Source of the DNA: an uncultured delta proteobacterium
Lineage (GTDB): Bacteria > Desulfobacterota > Syntrophia > Syntrophales > Smithellaceae
Assembly: GCA_963753975.1 (NCBI GenBank)
Contig: CAVWEH010000002.1
Coordinates: forward strand, 512,001 to 576,000
Length of the DNA stretch: 64,000 nt
Reading direction: 5' to 3'
The position numbers and the translations under genes are program-made. Positions 45,541 through 58,993 of the stretch are shown here, one piece after another. Position 1 is the stretch's first letter; each line of letters opens with the position of its first letter. The notes beneath the pieces are model-generated. The model did no database searches. It had not been told where the DNA came from and saw only the letters and a list, made by a program, of their open reading frames with translations.

Positions 45541-47268
45541 CTATAACAAGCCTGCCTTTAATGATTCAGCGATAAATGCTTTCACTTCCTGAATAATCTT
45601 TGGCAGCGGATACAGTTTATTTTCACCGGTTTTTCTGATTTTCAATTCCACATTCCCATCAGCCAGGTTCTTCTGTCCGACGGTAATTCTCAGGGGAATC
45701 CCGATTAAATCGGCATCCTTGAACTTTACGCCGGCTCTTTCATCCCGGTCATCGAAAATAACCTCCATTCCCTCGGCCAACATTGAAATATAAAGATTTT
45801 CTGCAGCCGCGAAGATATTTTTTTCGTTCACATTCACCGGGGTAATAATTACATGATATGGCGCCAAAGGCATAGGCCAGATAATCCCATCTTTATCGTT
45901 ATTTTGTTCGATGCAGGCGGCAACTGTTCGGCCAATGCCGATTCCGTAGCAACCCATAATCATGATTTTTTCCTGGCCGTCTTTATCCAAATACGCTGCC
46001 TTCATCGCTTGACTGTATTTTGTGCCTAGTTCAAAGACATGGCCTACTTCAATGCCCCGCGCGAATTGGATATTGCCGCCGCAGCGAGGGCAGAAATCAT
46101 TTTTTTCCACGACACGCAAGTCGGCGAAATCTTCGATATTAAAATCCCTGTCCATATTGACATTCTTCAGATGATAATTTTCCTTATTGGCGCCCATGAC
46201 AAAATTGACCATATTCATTATAGAATAATCGGCAATCACCCGCGCCTTAATTTTGACGGCGCCGGCAAATCCCCGCGGTGCGCCTGTCGCTTTTTTAATC
46301 AGTTCATCATCGGCCAGTTCCAGTTCGGTCGCGCCCAGATAGTTTTTTACCTTGATTTCATTTACTTCCTGATCACCCCGGATAAGCACGGCGCAAGGCA
46401 CGCCGTCGGCACTGAAAATCAATGTTTTTACAATCTCTTGAGGTCTAACATTCAAAAACGAGCTGACTTCTTCGATTGTCCGCACGTTTGGTGTATGAAC
46501 ATTTTGCAACGGCAACCAATCTTTTTTAGTCGTCTTTTCCTTTTTCGGCGGCGCTACTTCAGCTTTTTCCAAGTTAGCCGCATATGTGCATTTTTCACAA
46601 AACACCATGGCATCCTCACCGGATTCAGCCATAACCATAAATTCATGCGAATATTTACCACCGATACTGCCGGAATCCGCTTCCACCGAACGGAATATCA
46701 GCCCGCAGCGGCGGAAAATATTATTATAAGCGGCAAACATCTTTTCATAACTTATTCGGGCGCCCTCTTCATCGGCATCAAAACTGTAAGCGTCCTTCAT
46801 GCCGAATTCCCGGCACCGCATTACACCAAAGCGCGGACGCATTTCATCACGGAATTTTGTCTGAATTTGATAAAGATTACGGGGTAACTGACGATACGTT
46901 TTCACGTCATTGCGGACTAAATCAGTAATTACCTCTTCGTGAGTCGGCCCCAGGCAATACTCCCGTTCATGACGGTCGCGAAATCTTAAAAGCTCCTTAC
47001 CATAATGTATCCACCTGCCTGATTCCTGCCAAAGCTCCGCTGGTTGCACCATCGGCAGATAAACCTCCTCTGCTCCGGCCTTATTCATTTCCTCCCGCAC
47101 AATTTGCTCTACCTTGCGAATAACACGATAGCCCAGAGGCAAATATGAATATATGCCGCTGGTTAATTTTCTGATCATCCCGGCCCTAATCATTAATTGA
47201 TGGCTGATAACCTCAGCATCGGAAGGAACTTCTCTTCCCGTGGGCAAATGCATTTCCGAATAGCGCAT
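45541..47268 (-). CDS. proS: Proline--tRNA ligase
   Basis: LGPTHEE, KFRDEMRPRFG, GIEVGHVF, MGCYGIG. Confidence 0.98.
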   Translation of the reverse strand: MRYSEMHLPTGREVPSDAEVISHQLMIRAGMIRKLTSGIYSYLPLGYRVIRKVEQIVREEMNKAGAEEVYLPMVQPAELWQESGRWIHYGKELLRFRDRHEREYCLGPTHEEVITDLVRNDVKTYRQLPRNLYQIQTKFRDEMRPRFGVMRCREFGMKDAYSFDADEEGARISYEKMFAAYNNIFRRCGLIFRSVEADSGSIGGKYSHEFMVMAESGEDAMVFCEKCTYAANLEKAEVAPPKKEKTTKKDWLPLQNVHTPNVRTIEEVSSFLNVRPQEIVKTLIFSADGVPCAVLIRGDQEVNEIKVKNYLGATELELADDELIKKATGAPRGFAGAVKIKARVIADYSIMNMVNFVMGANKENYHLKNVNMDRDFNIEDFADLRVVEKNDFCPRCGGNIQFARGIEVGHVFELGTKYSQAMKAAYLDKDGQEKIMIMGCYGIGIGRTVAACIEQNNDKDGIIWPMPLAPYHVIITPVNVNEKNIFAAAENLYISMLAEGMEVIFDDRDERAGVKFKDADLIGIPLRITVGQKNLADGNVELKIRKTGENKLYPLPKIIQEVKAFIAESLKAGLL

Positions 47269-48354
47269 TAAACCTCCTTTTCCCCCTCAAGCATCGAATT
47301 TATCTCTTCCAATAAAACCGGCACAAAGTTTTTTTCGGCGATTTTTTTTGTGGCTTTACCCTTTTTAAAAAGCATGCCGGAACCACGGCCTCCGGCAATA
47401 CCGATATCCGCATCGGCCGCCTCACCCGGACCATTGACAACACAGCCCATCAAGGCAACTTTCAAATATTCTTTCTTTCCGCTGAGTGCTTTTTCTATTT
47501 TTTTAGTCAACGCCGGAAGATCGATTTGACAACGTCCGCAAGTAGGGCAGGAAACAATTTCCGGCCCGACCATTCTAATTCTCAATGCGCGCAAAATGCT
47601 GTAAGCCACAGGAATCTCCGCAAGAGGATTGCCGGTCACGGAAACTCGAATTGTATCGCCAATGCCTGCATAAAGAAGCGTCCCTATGCCCAGTGCTGAT
47701 TTTATCGCGGCATCAACCAAAGTTCCGGCCTCCGTCACACCCAAGTGCAGCGGATAATCAGTTTTAGCCGCGATTAGGCGGTATGCTTCAATCATCGTCA
47801 GAACATCCGATGATTTAAGCGATAATTTAATTAAGTCAAATCCTTCATCCTCAAAAATCTCAATATTTCTTAAAGCACTGGCAACGAGGGCTTCCGGAAC
47901 CGGACCGCCATATTTCTTGGCCAAATCTTTCTCGAGCGAACCGGCGTTGACGCCTAGGCGAATAACAGTCCTCCGTTCTTTTGCCGTTTTTACGATCTCG
48001 CGGATCTTATTCTTTATCAATATTACCGGGATTAATTCTTATGCCATCCGCCCCCAGCTTCATGGCATCGAGTGCCAACTGATAATGGAAGTGGATGTCG
48101 GCAATGAGCGGCAGGCGTATCCTTTTTTTGATTTCCGGAATTGCCATGACGGCATTATGATCAGGCACGGCAATACGGACAATTTCGCAGCCGGCTTCCG
48201 CGAGTGCGTTTATTTGGGCAGACGTGGCTTTTACGTCACGGGTATCCGTATTAGTCATGGATTGCACCACCACAGGTGCGTCTCCGCCTATCGGCACACC
48301 TCCAAGATTAATTATTCTTGCTTTTCTCCTCTTGATTGATGATGAGTGCTCCAC
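47268..48354 (-). CDS. ispG: HMBPP synthase IspG, split by an apparent +1 frameshift near 48012-48015
   Basis: 5' ORF has VQSMTNT, ADIHF, RINPGNI; 3' ORF has [33 protein letters not shown]. Confidence 0.93.
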
Positions 48355-48681
48355 TTGGCGCCAGCTTTCTACGATTTTTTATATTTAAATTTATAACATG
48401 CGAATTGATCTTCGGCAATGGCTAATTTGATTGGAAAACTGCCAAGGCAATAATATCGTTAAAATAATAAATGTTGGCATAACACCTAAAAGCGGGGTCT
48501 CATTTTGCCAATATTTCTTGAATAATTTCTCTTTTGAGCGTTGTATTTGCTCTTCGGTATACTCTCACTAATTCTTTCAAATAGGCAAAGCAACCATCCA
48601 GAGAATTTGTTGTATTGGGAATATTGAATTCCGGATATTTCTGGTAGGTAAACAGATAAAGCCAAGTCAAATCTACAAAAT

Positions 48682-48721
48682 GAAGAGGGGCTGCCTGTAT
48701 CAGTACAAGCAGCCCCTCTTC
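48682..48721 (-). terminator. Hairpin downstream of the RTX gene
   Basis: GAAGAGGGGCTGC...GCAGCCCCTCTTC, 13-bp perfect stem. Confidence 0.7.
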
Positions 48722-48765
48722 TCAAATAGCCTTCACGAGTTCTAATACCACTATGCTGTTAAATT

Positions 48766-51700
48766 TTACTTCCAGCTCTGCGCCAGGATATTCTGGTATT
48801 GCTGGTCATTCATCATCGCCGTGTATTTCTGCAGGACGTCCATACCGGAATCATTGTTGATTGCGCTCATTGTGTTCACGATGGTTTCGATATCCTGCCG
48901 GGTGATGTAATGACCATCCGTAACTTCCAGTCTTTCAATTCCATAATTTGTCTGTTGGAATTCCCCAGCTATCTTCATGTAGTTATTGGCATCGATAAAT
49001 ACATAAAGATCGTTGTTTTGCTTGACTAGAACCGGCTCGGTCGTGGTTATTCCGTCAGTAAGCTTGAGATTATCTATATCGCCGCTCACGCCGGCAGTTT
49101 CATTGAGTGTATCCTGTCCATCTGTTCTGCGGAAAAGATACGTATCACTGCCGTTGCCGCCGGCCAGTATGTCGTTACCGGCACCGCCATCGAGTGTATC
49201 ATTGCCATACTGGCCAGAAAGAGTGTCGTTGCCATCCCCCCCAAGCAAGGTACTGTTGCCGTAGTAACCCGCTGTCAAAACGTCATCACCAGAACCACCA
49301 TCCAATATATCGTTGCCATACCAGCCACCTCTTAAAGTGTCGTTACCATCCCCGCCAAGCAAGGTACTGTTGCCGTAGTAACCCGCCGTCAAAACATCAT
49401 TCCCAGAACCACCATCCAATATATCGTTACCGTAGGTGCCGCCAGTTATTGTGTCGTTGCCACCTAAACCATAAATGGTATTGTTATGATCATAAACCGC
49501 CACCCCTGTAAGATTGTCATTCCCTTCTGTACCCGTAATGGGCAAAATCTCCGCCCTGCCGCCTATATCTGCAGCCGTCAGTACCGTACCATCGGCAAAA
49601 CGAAAATTGTCCACCTGATAATACCCAGAACTAAACCAGTTCTTTACAGTTAATGTCTCCCCCGTATCCTTGATCCGCAAAACAAGATCGCCGCCCGCAT
49701 TGAGGCCATAACCAATGTAATCAAAAGAATCAACCGTCAACCCCTCCCCAAACTGAACAGTGTCCGTACCGTTATAACTATTATTATCACGCTGGATAAT
49801 GTCATTGCCGGAACCTCTCCCATAGATGAACTTGTCGTCACCGCGACCGCCGTATAAATAGTCGTTACCGGCACCGCCATCGAGTGTATCATTGCCATAC
49901 TGGCCAGAAAGAGTGTCGTTGCCATCCCCCCCAAGCAAGGTACTGTTGCCGTAGTAACCCGCTGTCAAAACGTCATCACCAGAACCACCATCCAATATAT
50001 CGTTGCCATACCAGCCACCTCTTAAAGTGTCGTTACCATCCCCGCCAAGCAAGGTACTGTTGCCGTAGTAACCCGCCGTCAAAACATCATTCCCAGAACC
50101 ACCATCCAATATATCGTTACCGTAGGTGCCGCCAGTTATTGTGTCGTTGCCACCTAAACCATAAATGGTATTGTTATGATCATAAACCGCCACCCCTGTA
50201 AGATTGTCATTCCCTTCTGTACCCGTAATGGGCAAAATCTCCGCCCTGCCGCCTATATCTGCAGCCGTCAGTACCGTACCATCGGCAAAACGAAAATTGT
50301 CCACCTGATAATACCCAGAACTAAACCAGTTCTTTACAGTTAATGTCTCCCCCGTATCCTTGATCCGCAAAACAAGATCGCCGCCCGCATTGAGGCCATA
50401 ACCAATGTAATCAAAAGAATCAACCGTCAACCCCTCCCCAAACTGAACAGTGTCCGTACCGTTATAACTATTATTATCACGCTGGATAATGTCATTGCCG
50501 GAACCTCTCCCATAGATGAACTTGTCGTCACCGCGACCGCCGTATAAATAGTCGTTACCGGCACCGCCATCGAGTGTATCATTGCCATACTGGCCAGAAA
50601 GAGTGTCGTTGCCATCCCCCCCAAGCAAGGTACTGTTGCCGTAGTAACCCGCTGTCAAAACGTCATCACCAGAACCACCATCCAATATATCGTTGCCATA
50701 CCAGCCACCTCTTAAAGTGTCGTTACCATCCCCGCCAAGCAAGGTACTGTTGCCGTAGTAACCCGCCGTCAAAACATCATTCCCAGAACCACCATCCAAT
50801 ATATCGTTACCGTAGGTGCCGCCAGTTATTGTGTCGTTGCCACCTAAACCATAAATGGTATTGTTATGATCATAAACCGCCACCCCTGTAAGATTGTCAT
50901 TCCCTTCTGTACCCGTAATGGGCAAAATCTCCGCCCTGCCGCCTATATCTGCAGCCGTCAGTACCGTACCATCGGCAAAACGAAAATTGTCCACCTGATA
51001 ATACCCAGAACTAAACCAGTTCTTTACAGTTAATGTCTCCCCCGTATCCTTGATCCGCAAAACAAGATCGCCGCCCGCATTGAGGCCATAACCAATGTAA
51101 TCAAAAGAATCAACCGTCAACCCCTCCCCAAACTGAACAGTGTCCGTACCGTTATAACTATTATTATCACGCTGGATAATGTCATTGCCGGAACCTCTCC
51201 CATAGATGAACTTGTCGTCACCGCGACCGCCGTATAAATAGTCGTTACCGGCACCGCCATCGAGTGTATCATTGCCATACTGGCCAGAAAGAGTGTCGTT
51301 GCCATCCCCCCCAAGCAAGGTACTGTTGCCGTAGTAACCCGCTGTCAAAACGTCATCACCAGAACCACCATCCAATATATCGTTGCCATACCAGCCACCT
51401 CTTAAAGTGTCGTTACCATCCCCGCCAAGCAAGGTACTGTTGCCGTAGTAACCCGCCGTCAAAACATCATTCCCAGAACCACCATCCAATATATCGTTAC
51501 CGTAGGTGCCGCCAGTTATTGTGTCGTTGCCACCTAAACCATAAATGGTATTGTTATGATCATAAACCGCCACCCCTGTAAGATTGTCATTCCCTTCTGT
51601 ACCCGTAATGGGCAAAATCTCCGCCCTGCCGCCTATATCTGCAGCCGTCAGTACCGTACCATCGGCAAAACGAAAATTGTCCACCTGATAATACCCAGAA

Positions 51701-54700
51701 CTAAACCAGTTCTTTACAGTTAATGTCTCCCCCGTATCCTTGATCCGCAAAACAAGATCGCCGCCCGCATTGAGGCCATAACCAATGTAATCAAAAGAAT
51801 CAACCGTCAACCCCTCCCCAAACTGAACAGTGTCCGTACCGTTATAACTATTATTATCACGCTGGATAATGTCATTGCCGGAACCTCTCCCATAGATGAA
51901 CTTGTCGTCACCGCGACCGCCGTATAAATAGTCGTTACCGGCACCGCCATCGAGTGTATCATTGCCATACTGGCCAGAAAGAGTGTCGTTGCCATCCCCC
52001 CCAAGCAAGGTACTGTTGCCGTAGTAACCCGCTGTCAAAACGTCATCACCAGAACCACCATCCAATATATCGTTGCCATACCAGCCACCTCTTAAAGTGT
52101 CGTTACCATCCCCGCCAAGCAAGGTACTGTTGCCGTAGTAACCCGCCGTCAAAACATCATTCCCAGAACCACCATCCAATATATCGTTACCGTAGGTGCC
52201 GCCAGTTATTGTGTCGTTGCCACCTAAACCATAAATGGTATTGTTATGATCATAAACCGCCACCCCTGTAAGATTGTCATTCCCTTCTGTACCCGTAATG
52301 GGCAAAATCTCCGCCCTGCCGCCTATATCTGCAGCCGTCAGTACCGTACCATCGGCAAAACGAAAATTGTCCACCTGATAATACCCAGAACTAAACCAGT
52401 TCTTTACAGTTAATGTCTCCCCCGTATCCTTGATCCGCAAAACAAGATCGCCGCCCGCATTGAGGCCATAACCAATGTAATCAAAAGAATCAACCGTCAA
52501 CCCCTCCCCAAACTGAACAGTGTCCGTACCGTTATAACTATTATTATCACGCTGGATAATGTCATTGCCGGAACCTCTCCCATAGATGAACTTGTCGTCA
52601 CCGCGACCGCCGTATAAATAGTCGTTACCGGCACCGCCATCGAGTGTATCATTGCCATACTGGCCAGAAAGAGTGTCGTTGCCATCCCCCCCAAGCAAGG
52701 TACTGTTGCCGTAGTAACCCGCTGTCAAAACGTCATCACCAGAACCACCATCCAATATATCGTTGCCATACCAGCCACCTCTTAAAGTGTCGTTACCATC
52801 CCCGCCAAGCAAGGTACTGTTGCCGTAGTAACCCGCCGTCAAAACATCATTCCCAGAACCACCATCCAATATATCGTTACCGTAGGTGCCGCCAGTTATT
52901 GTGTCGTTGCCACCTAAACCATAAATGGTATTGTTATGATCATAAACCGCCACCCCTGTAAGATTGTCATTCCCTTCTGTACCCGTAATGGGCAAAATCT
53001 CCGCCCTGCCGCCTATATCTGCAGCCGTCAGTACCGTACCATCGGCAAAACGAAAATTGTCCACCTGATAATACCCAGAACTAAACCAGTTCTTTACAGT
53101 TAATGTCTCCCCCGTATCCTTGATCCGCAAAACAAGATCGCCGCCCGCATTGAGGCCATAACCAATGTAATCAAAAGAATCAACCGTCAACCCCTCCCCA
53201 AACTGAACAGTGTCCGTACCGTTATAACTATTATTATCACGCTGGATAATGTCATTGCCGGAACCTCTCCCATAGATGAACTTGTCGTCACCGCGACCGC
53301 CGTATAAATAGTCGTTACCGGCACCGCCATCGAGTGTATCATTGCCATACCTGCCATAAAGACTGTCATTGCCCGATCCGCCAATAAGCGTATTGCTGCC
53401 GTTGTAACTCGCCGTAATAACATCATCGCCGGAACCGCCATCCAGCATATCGCTGCCGTTATAACCACCAGTAAGGGTGTCGTTGCCATCACCGCCTAGC
53501 AATATATTGCTATGAGCAGCACCGCCATACCAACCCGCTGTCAAAACATCATTCCCAGAACCACCATCAATGATGTCATTACCGTTGCCGCCAGTTATTG
53601 TGTCGTTGCCGCCTAATCCGTAAACTGTGTTGTTCATATACGAAACCACGGCCGAGGAAAGATTGTCATCTCCTTCAGTCCCCATAATGGGAAGCATCTC
53701 CGTCCGGGCATTTACATCAGCAGCAGTCAGTTCACTGCCGTCGGCAAAATGAAACTTGTCCACTTGATATTCCCAATTAGTAAACCAGTTCTTGATCGTT
53801 AAGGTCTCTCCGGTATCCTTGATCCGCAGGATAAGATCGCCTCCCTCATTGAGGCCATAACCAATGTAATCAAAGGAATCAGCCGTCAGACCTTCACCGA
53901 ACTGCACCGTGTCCGTACCGTTGGGATTGGAATAGTAGCTGTAATCACGCTGGATAATGTCATTGCCGGAACCTCTCCCGTATATAAATGTATCGTTACC
54001 TCCACCGCCGTATAAATAGTCATCGCCCAAACCGCCATCTAGCGTGTCGTTGCCATACCTGCCATAAAGACTGTCATTGCCCGATCCGCCAATAAGCGTA
54101 TTGCTGCCGTTGTAACTCGCCGTAATAACATCATCGCCGGAACCGCCATCCAGCATATCGCTGCCGTTATAACCACCAGTAAGGGTGTCGTTGCCATCAC
54201 CGCCTAGCAATATATTGCTATGAGCAGCACCGCCATACCAACCCGCTGTCAAAACATCATTCCCAGAACCACCATAAAGAATGTCGTTGCCATCACCGCC
54301 CGACAAACTATCGTTACCGGCACCACCAGCGATAGCATCATCATTAGCAGTACCATTTAGTGAAACGTTGCCTGTACCACCAACAATCATATTTTTATCG
54401 AAGGAATTGACAATGAAATACGTTTCCTCGTCAGCCCCGGAAAGCATGTTGTTTCGGAAACTTTCATAATTCAAGTCGGCGCTGTTTTCGGCGTTGAGTC
54501 CACCAAGAGACCGGACAAATTCTGCCAGGGTAAACTTCCCTGTTATTGGATCTGTAGCAATACGCTGCTGGAAATCTGCGGCAACGGTACTTAGATCACC
54601 TTTAATGCTCTGAGTGCTTTCGTCCCAACTATACGTAATTTCATCAAAAAATCCCTTTAGATGGGTTTGCATCATTAGCTCGCCATAAAACATATCAAAC

Positions 54701-56274
54701 AGTTCTTGATAGGCCTGATTTAAAAACGGTACGGCATTGGAATTCGGATTTGCTCCCGTTGTTCCGACAAAATTCTGCCCCAGAAATTTTTCTATTACAG
54801 CAAGCTTCCTGGCATCAAATAAACCGCCTCGACTATTCGGATCAATGCCGTCAGCGCCTGTCCACTTAAATAGTATTTGCTCGAATGTGCTGTTGCGGAT
54901 ATTTGCCGATAAAGAGAGGATAGGTGTTGTACCGCCTGCTGAGGTTAAAACATCTGCATCCGTCTCCGCCATAAACTGTTCAACCAGCGCTTGTAAATCT
55001 CCGCTGGTATCCCTGACCATTGCTTGTTGTAAGTTATATACATTACCATAAGCCTGAATATCGGGCAGGGCGGCAATATCCACCGGTACATTCAACCATT
55101 CATTCGGTATAGTATACGCAGTATCTCTTTGAAACAGAAAGTCACCCATTTGACCGGTTGTGCCGTCAGTCTTTTCAAAGCTCCCTGCCTGCACCAGCAT
55201 ATTTCCTTGCCCATCGGGCGTGTTCGTAGCCGTATAGCCCGTGTTGAGGGCGCTGATCCCCAGTTCGTCGAGGGTCTTCAACTCATCTGCCGTTGAATAG
55301 CCGTCACCATCAATGTCTTGCCAGACTTTGATCTGAGAGAAAGCCACATCGTTTGCATCAACCTTCCCATCGCCGTTGTCATCGAGATCGGCCAAGGCCT
55401 GGAAACCACCGGCCGATTTCTGGCCGTTCTTCAGGAGCGTCTGATCACCGAACAATTCACCGCCATTATTGATTATGCCATCGCCGTTTATGTCCCTGAC
55501 CAAAAGGCCGTCATCGGCAGCTACCCACCCAGTCCGCTCCGCAAAGCCATTCCCATCGTGATCAAAATGTGCGCCTTGCGAGGAAGCGACGGTCTCAAAA
55601 CCGTCACCATCGAGATCCAGGACCAAGGGACAGCTGCGAGGGGGTGCAGCGTCAGCAGCGGTGGTGAAAAGAGAGCGGAAGGATGACATTATTGTATTCG
55701 TTATGTTTTGAAATAAATTGTTAATCCATAGCGGAATAAAAATATCGTTTGATGCATTATCTGCAATATAACCTCTTAACGCATCAAGTCTATTAAGCCA
55801 ACCTTTCAAAAAAACATTTTGCGATGGATCGTTTTCCACAATTTGGTTATATCTTGCTTCTCTTGCATCCAAAAAGACATCAACAAGATCACCATTGTAG
55901 TTATTTATTTCTGCTAAGGTCTGAGGACCAATCACAGCGTCTTGCGGAACACCAAGAATCTCCTGTAACATTTTTACGGCTCTTTCTGTTCCCATATTTA
56001 CAGCCGTATCAAATACGGCTATAGATAAATCTGTAGGCAAGGCGTCTCCACTTATTTTATCCCAATACATTTCTTTGTATATTTTTTTAGCATCATCTTG
56101 AGTTATGTCTTTTACACTTGCCACAGACTCACAAATTATACCCAGTTTTTTAGCCTCATTAAACGTGCCTTGTGTGATACCGTAATTGGTCTCTTTGCCA
56201 CGATCATTTTTGTAATTGGAATATCCTCCTTCTGCCTTTTTTACAAATGGATAAGCAAGATTAAAATTACCCAT
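48766..56274 (-). CDS. 2502-aa RTX (T1SS-type) protein: N-terminal GH108 lysozyme + peptidoglycan-binding domain, FrpC-like self-processing module, Ca-binding GGxGxD repeats
   Basis: EGGY..DRGKETNYGIT, FDTAVNMG, FLKGWLNRL; CPLVLDLDGDG, TGWVAADDGLLVRD, WQDIDGDG; many GGxGND nonapeptides; C-terminal LAQSWK. Confidence 0.92.
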   Translation of the reverse strand: MGNFNLAYPFVKKAEGGYSNYKNDRGKETNYGITQGTFNEAKKLGIICESVASVKDITQDDAKKIYKEMYWDKISGDALPTDLSIAVFDTAVNMGTERAVKMLQEILGVPQDAVIGPQTLAEINNYNGDLVDVFLDAREARYNQIVENDPSQNVFLKGWLNRLDALRGYIADNASNDIFIPLWINNLFQNITNTIMSSFRSLFTTAADAAPPRSCPLVLDLDGDGFETVASSQGAHFDHDGNGFAERTGWVAADDGLLVRDINGDGIINNGGELFGDQTLLKNGQKSAGGFQALADLDDNGDGKVDANDVAFSQIKVWQDIDGDGYSTADELKTLDELGISALNTGYTATNTPDGQGNMLVQAGSFEKTDGTTGQMGDFLFQRDTAYTIPNEWLNVPVDIAALPDIQAYGNVYNLQQAMVRDTSGDLQALVEQFMAETDADVLTSAGGTTPILSLSANIRNSTFEQILFKWTGADGIDPNSRGGLFDARKLAVIEKFLGQNFVGTTGANPNSNAVPFLNQAYQELFDMFYGELMMQTHLKGFFDEITYSWDESTQSIKGDLSTVAADFQQRIATDPITGKFTLAEFVRSLGGLNAENSADLNYESFRNNMLSGADEETYFIVNSFDKNMIVGGTGNVSLNGTANDDAIAGGAGNDSLSGGDGNDILYGGSGNDVLTAGWYGGAAHSNILLGGDGNDTLTGGYNGSDMLDGGSGDDVITASYNGSNTLIGGSGNDSLYGRYGNDTLDGGLGDDYLYGGGGNDTFIYGRGSGNDIIQRDYSYYSNPNGTDTVQFGEGLTADSFDYIGYGLNEGGDLILRIKDTGETLTIKNWFTNWEYQVDKFHFADGSELTAADVNARTEMLPIMGTEGDDNLSSAVVSYMNNTVYGLGGNDTITGGNGNDIIDGGSGNDVLTAGWYGGAAHSNILLGGDGNDTLTGGYNGSDMLDGGSGDDVITASYNGSNTLIGGSGNDSLYGRYGNDTLDGGAGNDYLYGGRGDDKFIYGRGSGNDIIQRDNNSYNGTDTVQFGEGLTVDSFDYIGYGLNAGGDLVLRIKDTGETLTVKNWFSSGYYQVDNFRFADGTVLTAADIGGRAEILPITGTEGNDNLTGVAVYDHNNTIYGLGGNDTITGGTYGNDILDGGSGNDVLTAGYYGNSTLLGGDGNDTLRGGWYGNDILDGGSGDDVLTAGYYGNSTLLGGDGNDTLSGQYGNDTLDGGAGNDYLYGGRGDDKFIYGRGSGNDIIQRDNNSYNGTDTVQFGEGLTVDSFDYIGYGLNAGGDLVLRIKDTGETLTVKNWFSSGYYQVDNFRFADGTVLTAADIGGRAEILPITGTEGNDNLTGVAVYDHNNTIYGLGGNDTITGGTYGNDILDGGSGNDVLTAGYYGNSTLLGGDGNDTLRGGWYGNDILDGGSGDDVLTAGYYGNSTLLGGDGNDTLSGQYGNDTLDGGAGNDYLYGGRGDDKFIYGRGSGNDIIQRDNNSYNGTDTVQFGEGLTVDSFDYIGYGLNAGGDLVLRIKDTGETLTVKNWFSSGYYQVDNFRFADGTVLTAADIGGRAEILPITGTEGNDNLTGVAVYDHNNTIYGLGGNDTITGGTYGNDILDGGSGNDVLTAGYYGNSTLLGGDGNDTLRGGWYGNDILDGGSGDDVLTAGYYGNSTLLGGDGNDTLSGQYGNDTLDGGAGNDYLYGGRGDDKFIYGRGSGNDIIQRDNNSYNGTDTVQFGEGLTVDSFDYIGYGLNAGGDLVLRIKDTGETLTVKNWFSSGYYQVDNFRFADGTVLTAADIGGRAEILPITGTEGNDNLTGVAVYDHNNTIYGLGGNDTITGGTYGNDILDGGSGNDVLTAGYYGNSTLLGGDGNDTLRGGWYGNDILDGGSGDDVLTAGYYGNSTLLGGDGNDTLSGQYGNDTLDGGAGNDYLYGGRGDDKFIYGRGSGNDIIQRDNNSYNGTDTVQFGEGLTVDSFDYIGYGLNAGGDLVLRIKDTGETLTVKNWFSSGYYQVDNFRFADGTVLTAADIGGRAEILPITGTEGNDNLTGVAVYDHNNTIYGLGGNDTITGGTYGNDILDGGSGNDVLTAGYYGNSTLLGGDGNDTLRGGWYGNDILDGGSGDDVLTAGYYGNSTLLGGDGNDTLSGQYGNDTLDGGAGNDYLYGGRGDDKFIYGRGSGNDIIQRDNNSYNGTDTVQFGEGLTVDSFDYIGYGLNAGGDLVLRIKDTGETLTVKNWFSSGYYQVDNFRFADGTVLTAADIGGRAEILPITGTEGNDNLTGVAVYDHNNTIYGLGGNDTITGGTYGNDILDGGSGNDVLTAGYYGNSTLLGGDGNDTLRGGWYGNDILDGGSGDDVLTAGYYGNSTLLGGDGNDTLSGQYGNDTLDGGAGNDILAGGNGSDTYLFRRTDGQDTLNETAGVSGDIDNLKLTDGITTTEPVLVKQNNDLYVFIDANNYMKIAGEFQQTNYGIERLEVTDGHYITRQDIETIVNTMSAINNDSGMDVLQKYTAMMNDQQYQNILAQSWK
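49171..53350. repeat. Six (plus 40 bp) tandem 690-bp repeats encoding 230-aa RTX/HCBP units
   Basis: Period 690 visible in the sequence and in identical shadow ORFs at 49737/50427/51117/51807/52497; no differences spotted by eye. Confidence 0.95.
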
Positions 56275-56305
56275 GATTATCCTCCTTAACGAAGTTTTTT
56301 ATTGT

Positions 56306-56743
56306 CTATTTTTCCTTAAGGTGGTTAAGATAAACTTGAAGGTTTAAAGTCCTTTTCTTCACTACGTTTATCTTCTCACCCGCCAATATGTTCTGCCATA
56401 TTGTTCCCTCAAAATTTTCATAGAATTCACTTATAAAATTAAACTCTGCATCTCTGAATTTTACCCATTGAATCTGGCTTTGCCTTAGAAGTGTCTTCTG
56501 TTTTTCTGGAAGTTTCTTCATAAGTTCTTTATAAATCCTGTTCATTTCTTTGTCCCACATTGTATTTGCTTCTACCGCACACTTTGTCATGCCGATTGTG
56601 CTAGAATCAGATGTAACGCATTTTTCCAGCCATGCATCTATCGGATGTTGTTTTTCTTTCTCCCCTGTAAACCCGTCTCCTGCTGCAAAGATCATCAAGA
56701 GAAAAACGACAATCAACCCTTTTCTAAAAATATTCTTTCGCAT
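56306..56743 (-). CDS. Exported LprI/DUF1311 lysozyme-inhibitor-family protein (putative cognate immunity)
   Basis: Signal peptide; C..STIGMTKC...WDKEMNRIYKEL...LRQSQIQWVKFRD; stop 31 bp before the RTX start. Confidence 0.85.
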   Translation of the reverse strand: MRKNIFRKGLIVVFLLMIFAAGDGFTGEKEKQHPIDAWLEKCVTSDSSTIGMTKCAVEANTMWDKEMNRIYKELMKKLPEKQKTLLRQSQIQWVKFRDAEFNFISEFYENFEGTIWQNILAGEKINVVKKRTLNLQVYLNHLKEK

Positions 56744-56829
56744 ATATCCCCCTTCCCTAAAATTCTAAAATATCCGCATTATTTCAATCCTCAAAAACTG
56801 CATCTGCATCAGATGAAATATTTTGGACG

Positions 56830-56857
56830 ATTCTATTTATTTGCATTATTTTGTCAA
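56830..56857 (-). promoter_or_regulatory. Sigma70 promoter for lprI-RTX
   Basis: Minus strand TTGACA-16 bp-TAGAAT. Confidence 0.6.
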
Positions 56858-56940
56858 TTCTCTTCATTGCCACCCAATTCATTTCTTATGAGCATGTCCT
56901 TGATAACATCTTTATGATTGCGAAGATAATTAAGTGCCAT
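56854..56940 (-). pseudogene. 28-codon gene stub (possibly a displaced toxin N-terminus)
   Basis: AAGGAG RBS; ATG 1 nt after the upstream stop; MALNYLRNHKDVIKDMLIRNELGGNEEN*; stop lies inside the TTGACA of the next promoter. Confidence 0.5.
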
Positions 56941-56941
56941 T

Positions 56942-57826
56942 TTATTTCTCCTTTCTAATTTTGATTAAATAGTTATAAAAATAATCATTTGCTGCCTGAT
57001 CATCTAACGGCCGCTTCATCTTTTTGTATATTTCTTCATCAAACAGAAATACCTTTCTCCCGACCAAGTCGCTCTTTGTTTTAAAATCTTTGTCAAACCG
57101 GATGATTATTATTGATGGTGGGTTTTGGTATTTTAAAAAACCGATAAATAGAAATGTATCGTCTTCTAAGGGGAGATATTTCAATTCTTCAGGCCAACTT
57201 GTTTTTTCGTAATAATATTTCCCCTGGTAATCAAAATTTCTTTCAGCCAAAGGCGTTCTCTTTTTTACCGGTTTATCATAAATGTACAGAAGCTTTTTTT
57301 GTAATAAGACCTTACCATTTTTATCTTTTCTTTCCATGTACCAGTCAAATGGGTCGTCACCCTTCGGATTCATGTTCGTAACTATTTCCACCTTGCTTCC
57401 ATCGCTGAACATGATCAGAGACGATTTCATTATTCTTCTTTCTTTTCTCATTTTATTAAAGAAAACATCGTATTCATCAGTCTTAAAATCCGTAACTGCA
57501 CCGGAGAAAAACAGCCTCCCTACATTTACTGGCTCTTCTTTTTCTCTCACTTTTACCCAGTCCTTAGCATATGTTATTAAATAATCTCCGTTCGACATTT
57601 TCATAACCCAAATAGCAGCATAATCAACGCGATTAGCTACTGGAATGTCTATTCCCCATACATCAGGGTATGGTGGATACTCTACTTGCTGTGTTTTATC
57701 GTTTTGAACATCTACTGGTTTCTCCGCTGCCCATGTGGATACAGCCATTAAAAACAATGTCAGAATCACAGTTTTTAAAATAAAAATACGAAGCAGATGA
57801 TTGTTTCTAAGATAATTATTTTTCAT
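56942..57826 (-). CDS. Exported hypothetical protein (putative orphan immunity protein); start ATG 57826
   Basis: AAGGAGG RBS, signal peptide ending TWA-AE, YPPYPDVWG motif. Confidence 0.7.
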   Translation of the reverse strand: MKNNYLRNNHLLRIFILKTVILTLFLMAVSTWAAEKPVDVQNDKTQQVEYPPYPDVWGIDIPVANRVDYAAIWVMKMSNGDYLITYAKDWVKVREKEEPVNVGRLFFSGAVTDFKTDEYDVFFNKMRKERRIMKSSLIMFSDGSKVEIVTNMNPKGDDPFDWYMERKDKNGKVLLQKKLLYIYDKPVKKRTPLAERNFDYQGKYYYEKTSWPEELKYLPLEDDTFLFIGFLKYQNPPSIIIIRFDKDFKTKSDLVGRKVFLFDEEIYKKMKRPLDDQAANDYFYNYLIKIRKEK

Positions 57827-58377
57827 GCCACCCTCCTTAAAATTTCTGTCGCAAAGCCCAGCCGCTTGCCGCGGTGAAAAGTTTTTACCCAACGTCCACG
57901 GCAAAGCCTTCTTTCGTTACCACCTTTCTGCCGTAAAACGAAAACTTATACTACGAAAAGCTCCCGCACAAATTGCCGGGAATCATGAATTTACATCTTG
58001 CTTAATTTTTTAACTGACAGGAGAGGCAACGTACAGGATGATTTTATTTTCATTAGCAAAACAGGCAAAACCTGTTTACATTTTTAATACTTTTGAAACC
58101 AAAACCATCAAATTTGAAGCTATAAAACTAAAAGAAAGGCGATACTTTTTTACTTTATATAGTTGTTATGTTTTCTAATATGATTACAAATAAATTGTCA
58201 ATAGCAATTATGCACATGAAATGTATATCTGTCCGCTAAATTCATTGATTGTTTTATAGCCAAATAATAAGTTAATTTAATATGTCAAACAGTTTTGTGT
58301 GCAAATATTTTAAATCGACGCGGAATGAAATATTATATTGAGTCTCTCCGCGGCAAGCCGAGGAGAATCTTCGATGC

Positions 58378-58457
58378 ACTCTCAAGGAATTCGTTTTAGC
58401 GGTAATGGCCAAGGTCTCCGATGGTTTGATTTTTGCAATCCTTGCCGCTAATCGCAC
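58378..58457 (-). pseudogene. Truncated 5' end of an aspartate aminotransferase (class I PLP) gene
   Basis: MRLAARIAKIKPSETLAITAK is a typical AspC N-terminus, coupled to the coaD stop; similarity is lost after about 26 codons. Confidence 0.75.
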
Positions 58458-58993
58458 TACCTACCTTCTTTATTGTTGTTGTTACGATTTATGTTGAATT
58501 TTTCCAATAGCTTCTGATGAACATTATCCGGCACCAGAGCCTTTACCGATCCTCCCAAACCGACCACTTCTTTGATAATCTTGGAGCTCGTGTAAAACCA
58601 TTTAAAACCGCTCATGAGAAACACCGTTTCAATTTCTCTTGTTTGACGACGGTTCATCAGGGCCATCTGGAATTCATACTCAAAATCGGAAAGGGCGCGC
58701 ATCCCGCGTAATATTATGCTGGCACCGGAACTTTTCAAATAATCGACAAGCAACCCGGAATGGCAATCAACTCTGACGCCTTTAATTTCTCGGCATACTT
58801 CCCTGATCATATCCATTCTTTCTTCTACCGTGAAAAGAGTGGCTTTATCGGAATTGTAAGCAACGAGAACAATAATTTCATCAAATATTCTAATTCCTCT
58901 TTTGATGATATCCACATGACCGTTGGTAATGGGATCGAATGTGCCGGGATATATGGCAATGCTGTTGGGAAATTTGTCCTGTGTCATTTTCAC
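58457..58993 (-). CDS. coaD: Phosphopantetheine adenylyltransferase
   Basis: YPGTFDPITNGHVDI, RGMRALSDFEYE. Confidence 0.97.
   Translation of the reverse strand: MKMTQDKFPNSIAIYPGTFDPITNGHVDIIKRGIRIFDEIIVLVAYNSDKATLFTVEERMDMIREVCREIKGVRVDCHSGLLVDYLKSSGASIILRGMRALSDFEYEFQMALMNRRQTREIETVFLMSGFKWFYTSSKIIKEVVGLGGSVKALVPDNVHQKLLEKFNINRNNNNKEGR

Follow-up and report, generated by a model that had tools for sequence, protein, structure and literature searches.

The window analyzed here is a 64,000-nucleotide stretch of DNA (positions 512,001 to 576,000 of contig CAVWEH010000002.1, GenBank assembly GCA_963753975.1) from an uncultured delta proteobacterium of the family Smithellaceae. It contains two adjacent genes, one for a small, exported-looking protein of the LprI family (DUF1311; Pfam ID PF07007) and one for a giant repeats-in-toxin (RTX) protein that starts with a lysozyme-like GH108 head, followed by an FrpC-type self-processing module (SPM) and a long stalk of RTX repeats (Table 1). 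The best explanation, to which we assign a probability of about 0.7, is that this pair is a toxin-immunity cassette of an SPM-RTX polymorphic toxin family, carried on a horizontally acquired island. Judged by their sequences, the pair and its relatives would form a polymorphic toxin system that uses the type I secretion (RTX) route and a mirrored gene layout. This reading rests on comparison plus a model of the complex between the two proteins, from which we infer muramidase activity and toxicity of the head, its neutralization by binding, and export.

Both open reading frames (ORFs), their contents, and the 31-bp gap that separates the LprI-family gene from the RTX gene downstream of it are as given in the initial annotation of this DNA. 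Its assignment of the head also holds. Glyco_hydro_108 (PF05838) covers residues 10-95 (E = 4.6e-24; 85.2 bits versus a curated cut-off of 21.2), PG_binding_3 (PF09374) covers residues 98-163 (E = 4.7e-11; 43.2 bits versus 24.6), and residues 2-168 match the structure of the Brucella muramidase SagA (7DNP; E = 5.8e-26). The glutamate of the “EGGY” motif, E15, aligns together with D24 and T29 with Glu17, Asp26, and Thr31, the catalytic residues of SagA (PMC8334348), and this triad is invariant in 39 diverse GH108 sequences and in four GH108-SPM heads. The head is therefore predicted to be a T4-lysozyme-like GH108 muramidase with its own peptidoglycan-binding domain, and would be toxic as such.

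The small upstream gene encodes a protein whose residues 44-135 match LprI (PF07007; E = 2.6e-20; 73.2 bits versus a cut-off of 22), a very large family with 2669 representatives at E <= 0.001. By eye, its N-terminus has a basic and then a hydrophobic stretch, as in a signal peptide, with no lipobox cysteine after the hydrophobic segment; the MliC domain (PF09864) gave no match in it at E <= 0.01, and it is read as a single-domain protein other than a lipoprotein. When head residues 1-175 (39-row alignment) and LprI residues 27-145 (131-row alignment) were modeled together, as the initial annotation had suggested, the complex scored 0.83 (0.83, 0.84, and 0.82 in individual runs), compared with 0.12 for the best control. 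Of 157 solved complexes, 116 attain the score mark, as do 2 of 215 mismatched pairs; these counts are only rough because self-made alignments were used. The runs have at least 88% of the contacts in common, with a partner pLDDT (predicted local distance difference test) of at least 90. In the modeled interface, head residues 13-17, 30-36, 92-98, and 145-165 face LprI residues 36-59 and 109-126, and E15 would contact residues 48-49, located in the loop between Cys42 and Cys55. The model supports, but does not show, occlusion of the head active site by the LprI-family protein. Its score is unlikely to reflect recall of a solved complex, because the only solved relative found with the LprI profile is 6AR7, an uncharacterized protein that is not part of a complex. 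Elsewhere, LprI-domain proteins with signal peptides that are encoded next to lysozyme-like type VI secretion system (T6SS) effectors have been predicted, rather than shown, to be immunity proteins (PMC9796082, PMC12135965).

The interchangeable nature of the head is evident from the relatives of the giant protein. When its residues 1-420 served as the query of a word-indexed protein search, 823 proteins with lengths of 1376-4379 aa were obtained, and the top 120 among them are SPM-RTX proteins. Among these best 120 of 823, the front domains include GH108 with PG_binding_3 in 3 proteins (P0005, P0009, and P0012), M23 peptidase (PF01551) in 6, PF01464 (which we take to be the SLT lytic transglycosylase family) in 1, a lipase domain (Lipase_3, PF01764) in 2, and PF11187 in 1; many have no recognized front domain. 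The heads encoded at ten loci from the same phylum comprise Phage_lysozyme, Glucosaminidase, Peptidase_M23, Lipase_3/Mbeg1-like, and several unknown domains. The SPM-RTX backbone thus carries unrelated toxin domains, as the backbones of polymorphic toxins do, and the N-terminal variation anticipated in the initial annotation is real. A PDB sequence search with one unassigned head, the 308-aa head of L052, gave nothing meaningful, and residues 1-150 of P0008 and P0010, which belong to no Pfam family, have a conserved ...FR.HD.AYD... stretch.

The heads vary together with the genes upstream of them. A set of 20 head/upstream-ORF pairs was compared. Wherever two heads were similar over more than 140 aa, which was the case five times, their upstream ORFs were similar as well: the GH108 heads of the window and L062 (69% over 206 aa; upstream ORFs, 77%), the heads of L052 and L057 (33%; upstream, 40%), those of L053c and L054 (37%; upstream, 35%) and of L055 and L058 (29%; upstream, 26%), and the M23 heads of L053 and L062 (39%; upstream, 23%). 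The co-variation sought in the initial annotation was therefore found, and the pattern that it named as contrary, one N-terminus throughout with no linked exported gene, did not occur. A second GH108 clade, in L124 and L125, has heads that are 47% alike and about 45% identical to the window head; upstream of these heads is a different, non-LprI exported ORF (28% over 151 aa, E = 3e-20). Each head subtype therefore appears to have its own partner, as specific immunity predicts.

The combination of LprI with a GH108-SPM head also recurs as a unit in two unrelated contigs. In L062 (a contig titled as a Nitrospirae metagenome-assembled genome [MAG]), the LprI homologue is followed after about 27 bp by the GH108-SPM ORF, and in L123 (a metagenome contig) an LprI homologue (profile E = 5.7e-55) precedes a GH108-SPM ORF (69%); with the window included, the gap in these cassettes is about 27-31 bp. 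In both L062 and L123, the cassettes lie inside arrays of truncated head-SPM ORFs that lack RTX repeats. Every truncated ORF has a small ORF of its own in front of it, and most of these small ORFs have a signal-peptide-like start. The L062 array is located upstream of a full-length M23-SPM-RTX gene and ends at it, and similar cassette arrays are found in L052 and L053. Within an array, the residue ahead of the SPM proline is uniform (...RRD|P in L062 and ...TTS|P in L123), and this shared junction marks the junction or the SPM as a likely recombination handle. Two genes with ParB_N and HTH_ParB domains are situated between the toxin-head cassettes of the SPM array of genome G001 (L053:8964-9899 and L053:15852-16787). 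Ankyrin-repeat proteins are encoded upstream of SPM-RTX genes at three loci (L058:6808-8469, L059:5324-6103, and L060:9613-10875), in L060 directly upstream of an M23-headed gene, and may be another class of immunity proteins.

We also considered LprI as a general neighbor of GH108 genes and rejected this idea. A scan of GH108 flanks with the LprI profile (up to 6 kb in genome contigs and up to 9 kb in metagenome contigs) found LprI-like ORFs at 2 of 60 genome loci (L062 and L065, the latter with three tandem copies) and 1 of 80 metagenome loci (L123), and two of these three are the cassette itself; outside the cassettes, the counts are 1 of 59 and 0 of 79. The remaining locus, L065:6001-9568 (contig titled as a Gastranaerophilales MAG), encodes a stand-alone GH108 protein 1.2-3.5 kb from three tandem PF07007 genes on the opposite strand, a second association between these families that involves no SPM.

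Different parts of the window protein have different closest relatives. Residues 1-200 are nearest to the L062 and L123 cassettes (76-80% over the first 100 residues), whereas residues 203-640 and the last 150 residues are nearest to P0008 and P0010 (74-77%), two proteins that start with a head of about 150 aa not related to that of the window protein. On these alignments, the window gene is a mosaic.

The surroundings of the pair were compared as well. In a comparison with a genome of the same genus, G370, a segment of 9.9 kb has no alignment, while its flanks are 89-92% identical; at this position, G370 has a 398-aa aminotransferase-like frame between ispG and coaD. Residues 1-420 were also searched against 400 genomes sampled from the phylum. 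SPM-bearing relatives were seen in 9 of these, fused GH108 and SPM in no other genome of the sample, and no homologue of residues 1-420 was found in any of the 7 other genomes of the family. The absence of the island from G370 and of homologues from the rest of the family indicates that the pair is accessory and was horizontally acquired. The G+C content is 0.358 in the LprI gene, 0.344 in the region of a 320-aa ORF farther upstream, 0.475 in the RTX gene, and 0.41-0.46 in the flanks.

This 320-aa ORF has no head of its own kind in the window. Its product resembles the ORFs directly upstream of the SPM-RTX genes in L052 (39%, E = 4e-54) and L057 (34%, E = 7e-38), two loci whose heads are related to each other over 316 aa. 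It had no Pfam match and no PDB match, its only matches in the protein atlas were clusters without a name at 0.85, which is below the counting level, and an AlphaFold2 model based on a 3-sequence alignment had a mean pLDDT of 45.8, too poor for a fold comparison. On the simplest reading of these sequences, an earlier head would have been displaced by the incoming LprI-GH108 cassette, with its immunity gene left behind. This orphan immunity-like gene and the orphan cassettes of L052, L053, L062, and L123 are again what is seen in polymorphic toxin systems.

If the pair is such a cassette, its parts would fit together as follows. Because type I secretion relies on a C-terminal signal, the variable toxic head would occupy the N-terminus, and the cognate immunity gene would lie directly upstream of the head. 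Head-plus-immunity units would be traded as cassettes through recombination at the SPM junction or close to it. The exported PF07007 protein would wait in the periplasm and block the cleft between the catalytic and binding domains, with the loop between its two cysteines sitting on the catalytic Glu15. The initial annotation had described this as the reverse of the layout in contact-dependent inhibition (CDI) and Rhs systems, with immunity first and the toxin N-terminal; that description is favored by the variation of the heads, their co-variation with the upstream genes, and the complex model, and is less secure in its premise about LprI, in the scissile Asp, and in delivery.

The promoter-like site upstream of the LprI-family gene, TTGACA-16-TAGAAT, is the top match (11/12) in a scan of positions 48300-58500. 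By fit to consensus, this site, the two genes, and the terminator-like hairpin after the RTX gene could make up a self-contained two-gene operon. A 79-aa ORF at 48486-48725 (minus strand) was rejected as a gene because it has no match to a Pfam family and overlaps the hairpin. The neighbors are housekeeping genes, named here after their Pfam families: on one side ispG, proS, and genes for a RelA/SpoT-family protein, an amidase, and RNase PH, and on the other side coaD-like, rsmD-like, and pssA-like genes and psd. The ispG (GcpE) gene is split into two overlapping frames on the minus strand, 47268-48020 and 48007-48354, which correspond to the two halves of the Pfam model, while a single 369-aa frame is open in G370; at other places in the window's genome, AcrB-type genes are likewise broken up into 2-3 frames (L017 and L018). 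This points to assembly indel errors or pseudogenes.

Table 1. Features of the GH108-SPM-RTX locus, with positions in the 64,000-nucleotide window
Feature	Position	Strand	Basis or remark
Candidate immunity gene, exported PF07007 (LprI/DUF1311) protein, 145 aa	56306..56743	-	ORF translation and Pfam
GH108-SPM-RTX gene, 2502 aa, no N-terminal signal peptide	48766..56274	-	Translation, Pfam, PDB comparison
Predicted toxin head, GH108 catalytic domain and PG_binding_3	55786..56247	-	Pfam, SagA alignment
Codon 215, TGT (Cys), position of FrpC Asp414 ahead of the SPM proline	55630..55632	-	Translation and codon read
FrpC-type SPM, residues 216-387	55114..55629	-	6SJW, E = 2.7e-53
Exact tandem repeat of a 690-bp unit (6.06 copies; 230 aa per unit, with RTX nonapeptides and HCBP_related domain), residues 975-2368	49171..53350	-	Repeat search and script
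C-terminal 160 aa, presumed type I secretion region, end ...QNILAQSWK	48769..49248	-	Alignment to relatives linked to type I secretion genes
Promoter-like site TTGACA-16-TAGAAT	56830..56857	-	87 bp upstream of LprI start; consensus match only
Ribosome-binding site AAGGAGG	56281..56287	-	6 nt ahead of the RTX-gene ATG, read from sequence
Terminator-like hairpin, 18-bp stem, 10 G-C pairs	48682..48721	-	45 nt past the RTX stop codon; consensus match only
9.9-kb island, unalignable to same-genus genome G370	48476..58378		blastn versus window
Putative orphan immunity gene, exported-looking, 320 aa (first TTG) or 294 aa (Met at 57826)	56942..57904	-	Homology to L052/L057 upstream ORFs

The stalk of the giant protein contains 30 HemolysinCabind and 7 HCBP_related stretches above the curated cut-offs, and Tandem Repeats Finder detects an inner period of 114 bp. 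The exact 690-bp copies are flanked by diverged copies with 62-94% identity, so that the exact block would be either a very recent expansion or a product of homogenization during assembly or polishing. Two sets of additional matches were not retained: the BapA_N and DUF7393 rows of Pfam, in which no single stretch passes on its own, and whole-protein names from NCBIfam (RTX hemolysin, EhxA, and others), all of which are below their cut-offs and mirror only the repeats.

The traits of an RTX substrate of type I secretion are all present in the window protein: nonapeptide repeats, a C-terminal region of the appropriate kind, and an N-terminus that opens directly with the GH108 domain. At six loci (L052, L055, L056, L057, L060, and L061), the sequence covers what follows a full-length SPM-RTX gene, and in four of them the gene is directly followed by genes for an ATP-binding cassette (ABC) protein with a C39 domain and for HlyD; one of the other two has an HlyD-family ORF, and one has neither. 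The relatives' ABC proteins with the Peptidase_C39-like domain are 704-740 aa long, and the HlyD-family proteins are 455-474 aa long or are cut by the contig end. The C-terminus of the window protein aligns to the very end of the L057 protein (32%, E = 7e-22, subject residues 2370-2530 of 2533), shares with the relatives linked to type I secretion system (T1SS) genes a terminal Q-x-I-L-A-Q-x-W motif, and has 76-77% identity to the C-terminal regions of P0008 and P0010. The adjoining ABC and HlyD genes and this C-terminal alignment therefore identify type I secretion as the route of the family.

Several findings weigh against the toxin-immunity reading, and the most serious ones concern this particular genome. 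The initial annotation had noted the lack of T1SS transporter genes in the window, which is correct, and had proposed a genome-wide search; no gene for a T1SS ABC protein or HlyD (membrane-fusion) protein was found in the 2.43-Mb, 6-contig, 95.1%-complete genome, in which TolC-family genes are present. The models for HlyB, PrtD, and HlyD (TIGR01846, TIGR01842, and TIGR01843) all remained under their cut-offs. The top ABC exporter, with 364 bits to HlyB versus a cut-off of 726 and 31% identity to a relative's T1SS ABC protein, looks MsbA-like because it is encoded between lpxK and lpxB; the HlyD-like genes belong to pumps of the resistance-nodulation-division and major facilitator superfamily types, and a relative's HlyD as the query gave only matches at E = 6e-5. 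The SPM poses a further problem. The FrpC/ApxIV-like module is present, as initially proposed, and the equivalents of W451, W519, D478, D579, and the DLDGDG motif, whose roles are described in PMC7078468, are conserved in the alignment to 6SJW. However, the junction is Cys215-Pro216 instead of the Asp-Pro of FrpC, with a codon two base changes away from one for Asp. In the published mechanism, the carboxylate of Asp414 attacks its own carbonyl to form an anhydride (PMC7078468), and the D414A replacement in FrpC abolishes cleavage (PMC7846742), so that this mechanism requires the Asp side chain. With no T1SS found and a Cys-Pro junction in the SPM, the weapon may not be deployable in this genome, in which case its lasting benefit may be immunity, provided by LprI and the orphan gene, to neighbors with the same heads.

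There is accordingly a sizable, if minority, chance that the cassette, although derived from the toxin family, no longer acts as a weapon here, with the giant protein neither exported nor processed and selection, if any, maintaining only the immunity function of the LprI and orphan genes against the toxins of neighbors. As to origin, this possibility and the toxin-immunity reading are compatible. Besides the lack of T1SS genes by family models and by relatives' proteins, and the cysteine at the junction, it is favored by the facts that all RTX repeats of the genome are in this one gene, that a strong terminator-like hairpin and then ispG follow where relatives have the ABC and HlyD genes, and that an orphan immunity-like gene has been retained alongside. 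Against it, the 7.5-kb frame is fully open despite the frame breaks in other genes of the assembly, the ribosome-binding site is strong and the promoter-like site is the best in the region, and the catalytic triad and SPM core residues are intact. A T1SS operon could also sit in a gap, given that the genome is 95.1% complete and in 6 contigs. Nor is the cysteine exceptional. Among the best 120 of 823 matches, 44 distinct N-proximal junctions remained once 49 duplicates had been removed, along with 15 junctions located over 700 aa from the N-terminus and 12 proteins that did not match the pattern; ahead of the SPM proline, 21 of the 44 have D, 20 have S, 2 have C, and 1 has T. Asp-Pro is the junction in P0008 and P0010, the nearest relatives of this SPM. 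Non-Asp junctions are thus common and probably maintained, so that a missing Asp need not mean lost function; Ser-Pro and Cys-Pro modules may use other chemistry or may not cleave. The articles cited here cover Asp-Pro in the parts available, and no account of non-Asp chemistry was found in a literature search whose scope lay mostly outside subscription journals. Delivery on a Ca2+-folded stalk, as first proposed, is doubtful for this organism because no T1SS ABC or HlyD gene was found in its 95.1%-complete assembly and the RTX gene is its only one.

Other objections bear on the small protein, on the target, and on the assembly. The complex score is a measure of model confidence only. The initial annotation relied on the statement that LprI binds lysozyme; the exported-looking PF07007 protein is confirmed, but LprI of Mycobacterium tuberculosis also carries an MliC domain, which is reported to be enough to make cells resist lysozyme, while ScwA, whose only such domain is PF07007, did not protect against lysozyme (PMC7933661). 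Inhibitor activity is not proven for PF07007 by itself. The sole studied candidate for a GH108 inhibitor, PhiA, differs in fold and failed to bind SagA in vitro (PMC8334348). In the co-variation set, a weak similarity between the M23 heads of L060 and L062 (E = 1.5e-4) goes with unrelated upstream genes. No domain for crossing the outer membrane of a target was identified in the protein; monoderm targets or RTX-aided translocation are possibilities only. Finally, the assembly has frame breaks elsewhere (ispG and the AcrB genes), and the six exact 690-bp repeats may misstate the true copy number, which, being derived from exact repeats in such an assembly, may depend on how it was put together.

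Two functions unrelated to bacterial competition were weighed as well. The head might act on, or bind, the producer's own peptidoglycan, either as a periplasmic anchor of a surface RTX adhesin or as a secretion-associated muramidase, with LprI as a housekeeping regulator. The closest solved relatives of the head, SagA (7DNP) and 6V3Z/6V40 (presumably TtsA-type entries), are self-acting muramidases tied to secretion, and in LapA-type adhesins, which are exported by a T1SS, the N-terminus is retained in the periplasm. In addition, ScwA regulates an endogenous lytic enzyme in Salmonella (PMC7933661). We nevertheless consider this self-directed role improbable: no LapG-type site or retention module was recognized in the protein, the pair sits on an island and is missing from each of the 7 other family genomes, and GH108 heads swap with M23 peptidases, other lysozymes, and lipases on one backbone. 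Interchangeable heads, arrays of truncated cassettes, and co-varying upstream genes fit conflict systems and not housekeeping. Still less likely, to the point of being barely credible, is an FrpC/ApxIV-type protein directed at a eukaryotic host, serving adhesion or cytotoxicity, with an incidental lysozyme-like head. The SPM and RTX parts are homologous to those of FrpC, and deletion of the ApxIVA SPM attenuates virulence in pigs (PMC7078468); however, a peptidoglycan hydrolase with a peptidoglycan-binding domain has a substrate found only in bacteria, the named relatives among the best 120 of 823 are mostly environmental metagenome bins, with a few cultured species among them, and FrpC showed no attenuation in animal models (PMC5472700).

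A toxin-immunity cassette thus remains the preferred explanation, and its likeness to known systems helps to define what it would add. Polymorphic toxins have been described for the type V, VI, and VII (T5, T6, and T7) and related routes. With the CDI (CdiA-CT/CdiI), Rhs, and T6SS islands, the SPM-RTX loci share a variable toxin on a conserved backbone, an adjacent cognate immunity gene, orphan cassettes and retained orphan immunity genes, and payloads that include peptidoglycan hydrolases and lipases; some VgrG proteins of Pantoea have a GH108 end (PMC9796082, PMC12135965). They differ in the mirrored layout, with an N-terminal toxin, immunity first, and orphans upstream, in an export route that is presumably type I rather than T5, T6, or T7, and in having a Ca2+-dependent SPM instead of the usual releasing peptidases. 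In the available parts of the 2012 survey of polymorphic toxins by Zhang et al., T1SS figures only as background to RTX toxins (PMC3482391). For type I secretion, we found in the literature only a one-sentence hypothesis on FrpC and FrpD (PMC6759196) and the class of RTX bacteriocins (PMC3034196), as far as the available text of these sources goes.

These bacteriocins, such as RzcA and the Rhizobium leguminosarum 248 bacteriocin, are likewise antibacterial RTX proteins exported by a T1SS; they are a recognized class whose mechanism “remains to be characterized,” and they are set apart by their description, which in the available parts of the source mentions no enzymatic head, SPM, or linked immunity gene (PMC3034196). 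Resemblance to SagA of Brucella and TtsA of Salmonella is limited to the head, which has the same T4-lysozyme-like domain, PG_binding_3 domain, and Glu/Asp/Thr triad. Those enzymes act on the producer's wall and let other cargo out, and SagA has a C-terminal membrane anchor and no SPM-RTX fusion. A periplasmic partner, PhiA, has been proposed for SagA too; unlike the LprI-family protein of the window, it has an MliC/PliC fold, and neither binding nor inhibition was seen in vitro (PMC8334348). M. tuberculosis LprI and Salmonella ScwA resemble the small protein more closely, as exported PF07007 proteins with conserved cysteines that are tied to peptidoglycan enzymes (PMC7933661). The additional MliC domain of LprI, which may account for its lysozyme inhibition, and its lipoprotein anchor are missing from the window protein, and ScwA raises MltD levels (PMC7933661); the window protein is encoded beside its predicted target.

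The closest parallel is the frpDC operon of Neisseria meningitidis. There, too, the gene for a small exported protein is located immediately upstream of an RTX gene, the SPMs are homologous, and FrpC is an RTX substrate of type I secretion; FrpD binds FrpC's N-terminal domain with a Kd of about 0.2 nM (PMC5233953, PMC3034196). For the FrpC head no activity is known, whereas that of the window protein can be recognized as a muramidase; the partner here is a PF07007 protein, and FrpD is a lipoprotein that has a different fold; the junctions are Asp-Pro and Cys-Pro, respectively; and Neisseria has a T1SS, while none was found in this genome. Bayer-Santos et al. (2019) observed that an antibacterial effector of a type IV secretion system resembles the heads of 221 RTX proteins and put forward the hypothesis that FrpC acts as an antibacterial effector of the T1SS, against which FrpD would provide immunity (PMC6759196). 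Their S4 Fig and S2 Table list RTX proteins with Smlt3024-like heads and may already include some of those considered here. Beyond the available parts of that paper, no description of enzymatic heads on SPM-RTX backbones, of cassette arrays, or of head/immunity co-variation was found in the same literature scope, mostly outside subscription journals.

To such a hypothesis, the locus and its relatives add obviously antibacterial heads, co-varying upstream genes, orphan arrays, and a testable inhibitor-enzyme pair. They make amenable to experiment the function of FrpC-like proteins, the purpose of the “clip-and-link” module, and whether the PF07007 family includes true muramidase inhibitors, and they raise the chemical question of whether and how Ser-Pro and Cys-Pro SPMs cleave. 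With slightly better than even odds, FrpC-type SPM-RTX proteins as a whole are a large, undescribed class of type I-secreted polymorphic antibacterial toxins with the mirrored layout. In such a class, the heads would be muramidases, M23 peptidases, lipases, and unknown domains, junctions would extend beyond Asp-Pro, and orphan head-SPM arrays would lie upstream, while the Ca2+-triggered SPM would serve as a recombination handle and as a device that releases the head outside the cell, perhaps with a covalent tie to the target. The FrpC and FrpD proteins of Neisseria, a functional puzzle since the 1990s, would then be one member of this class.

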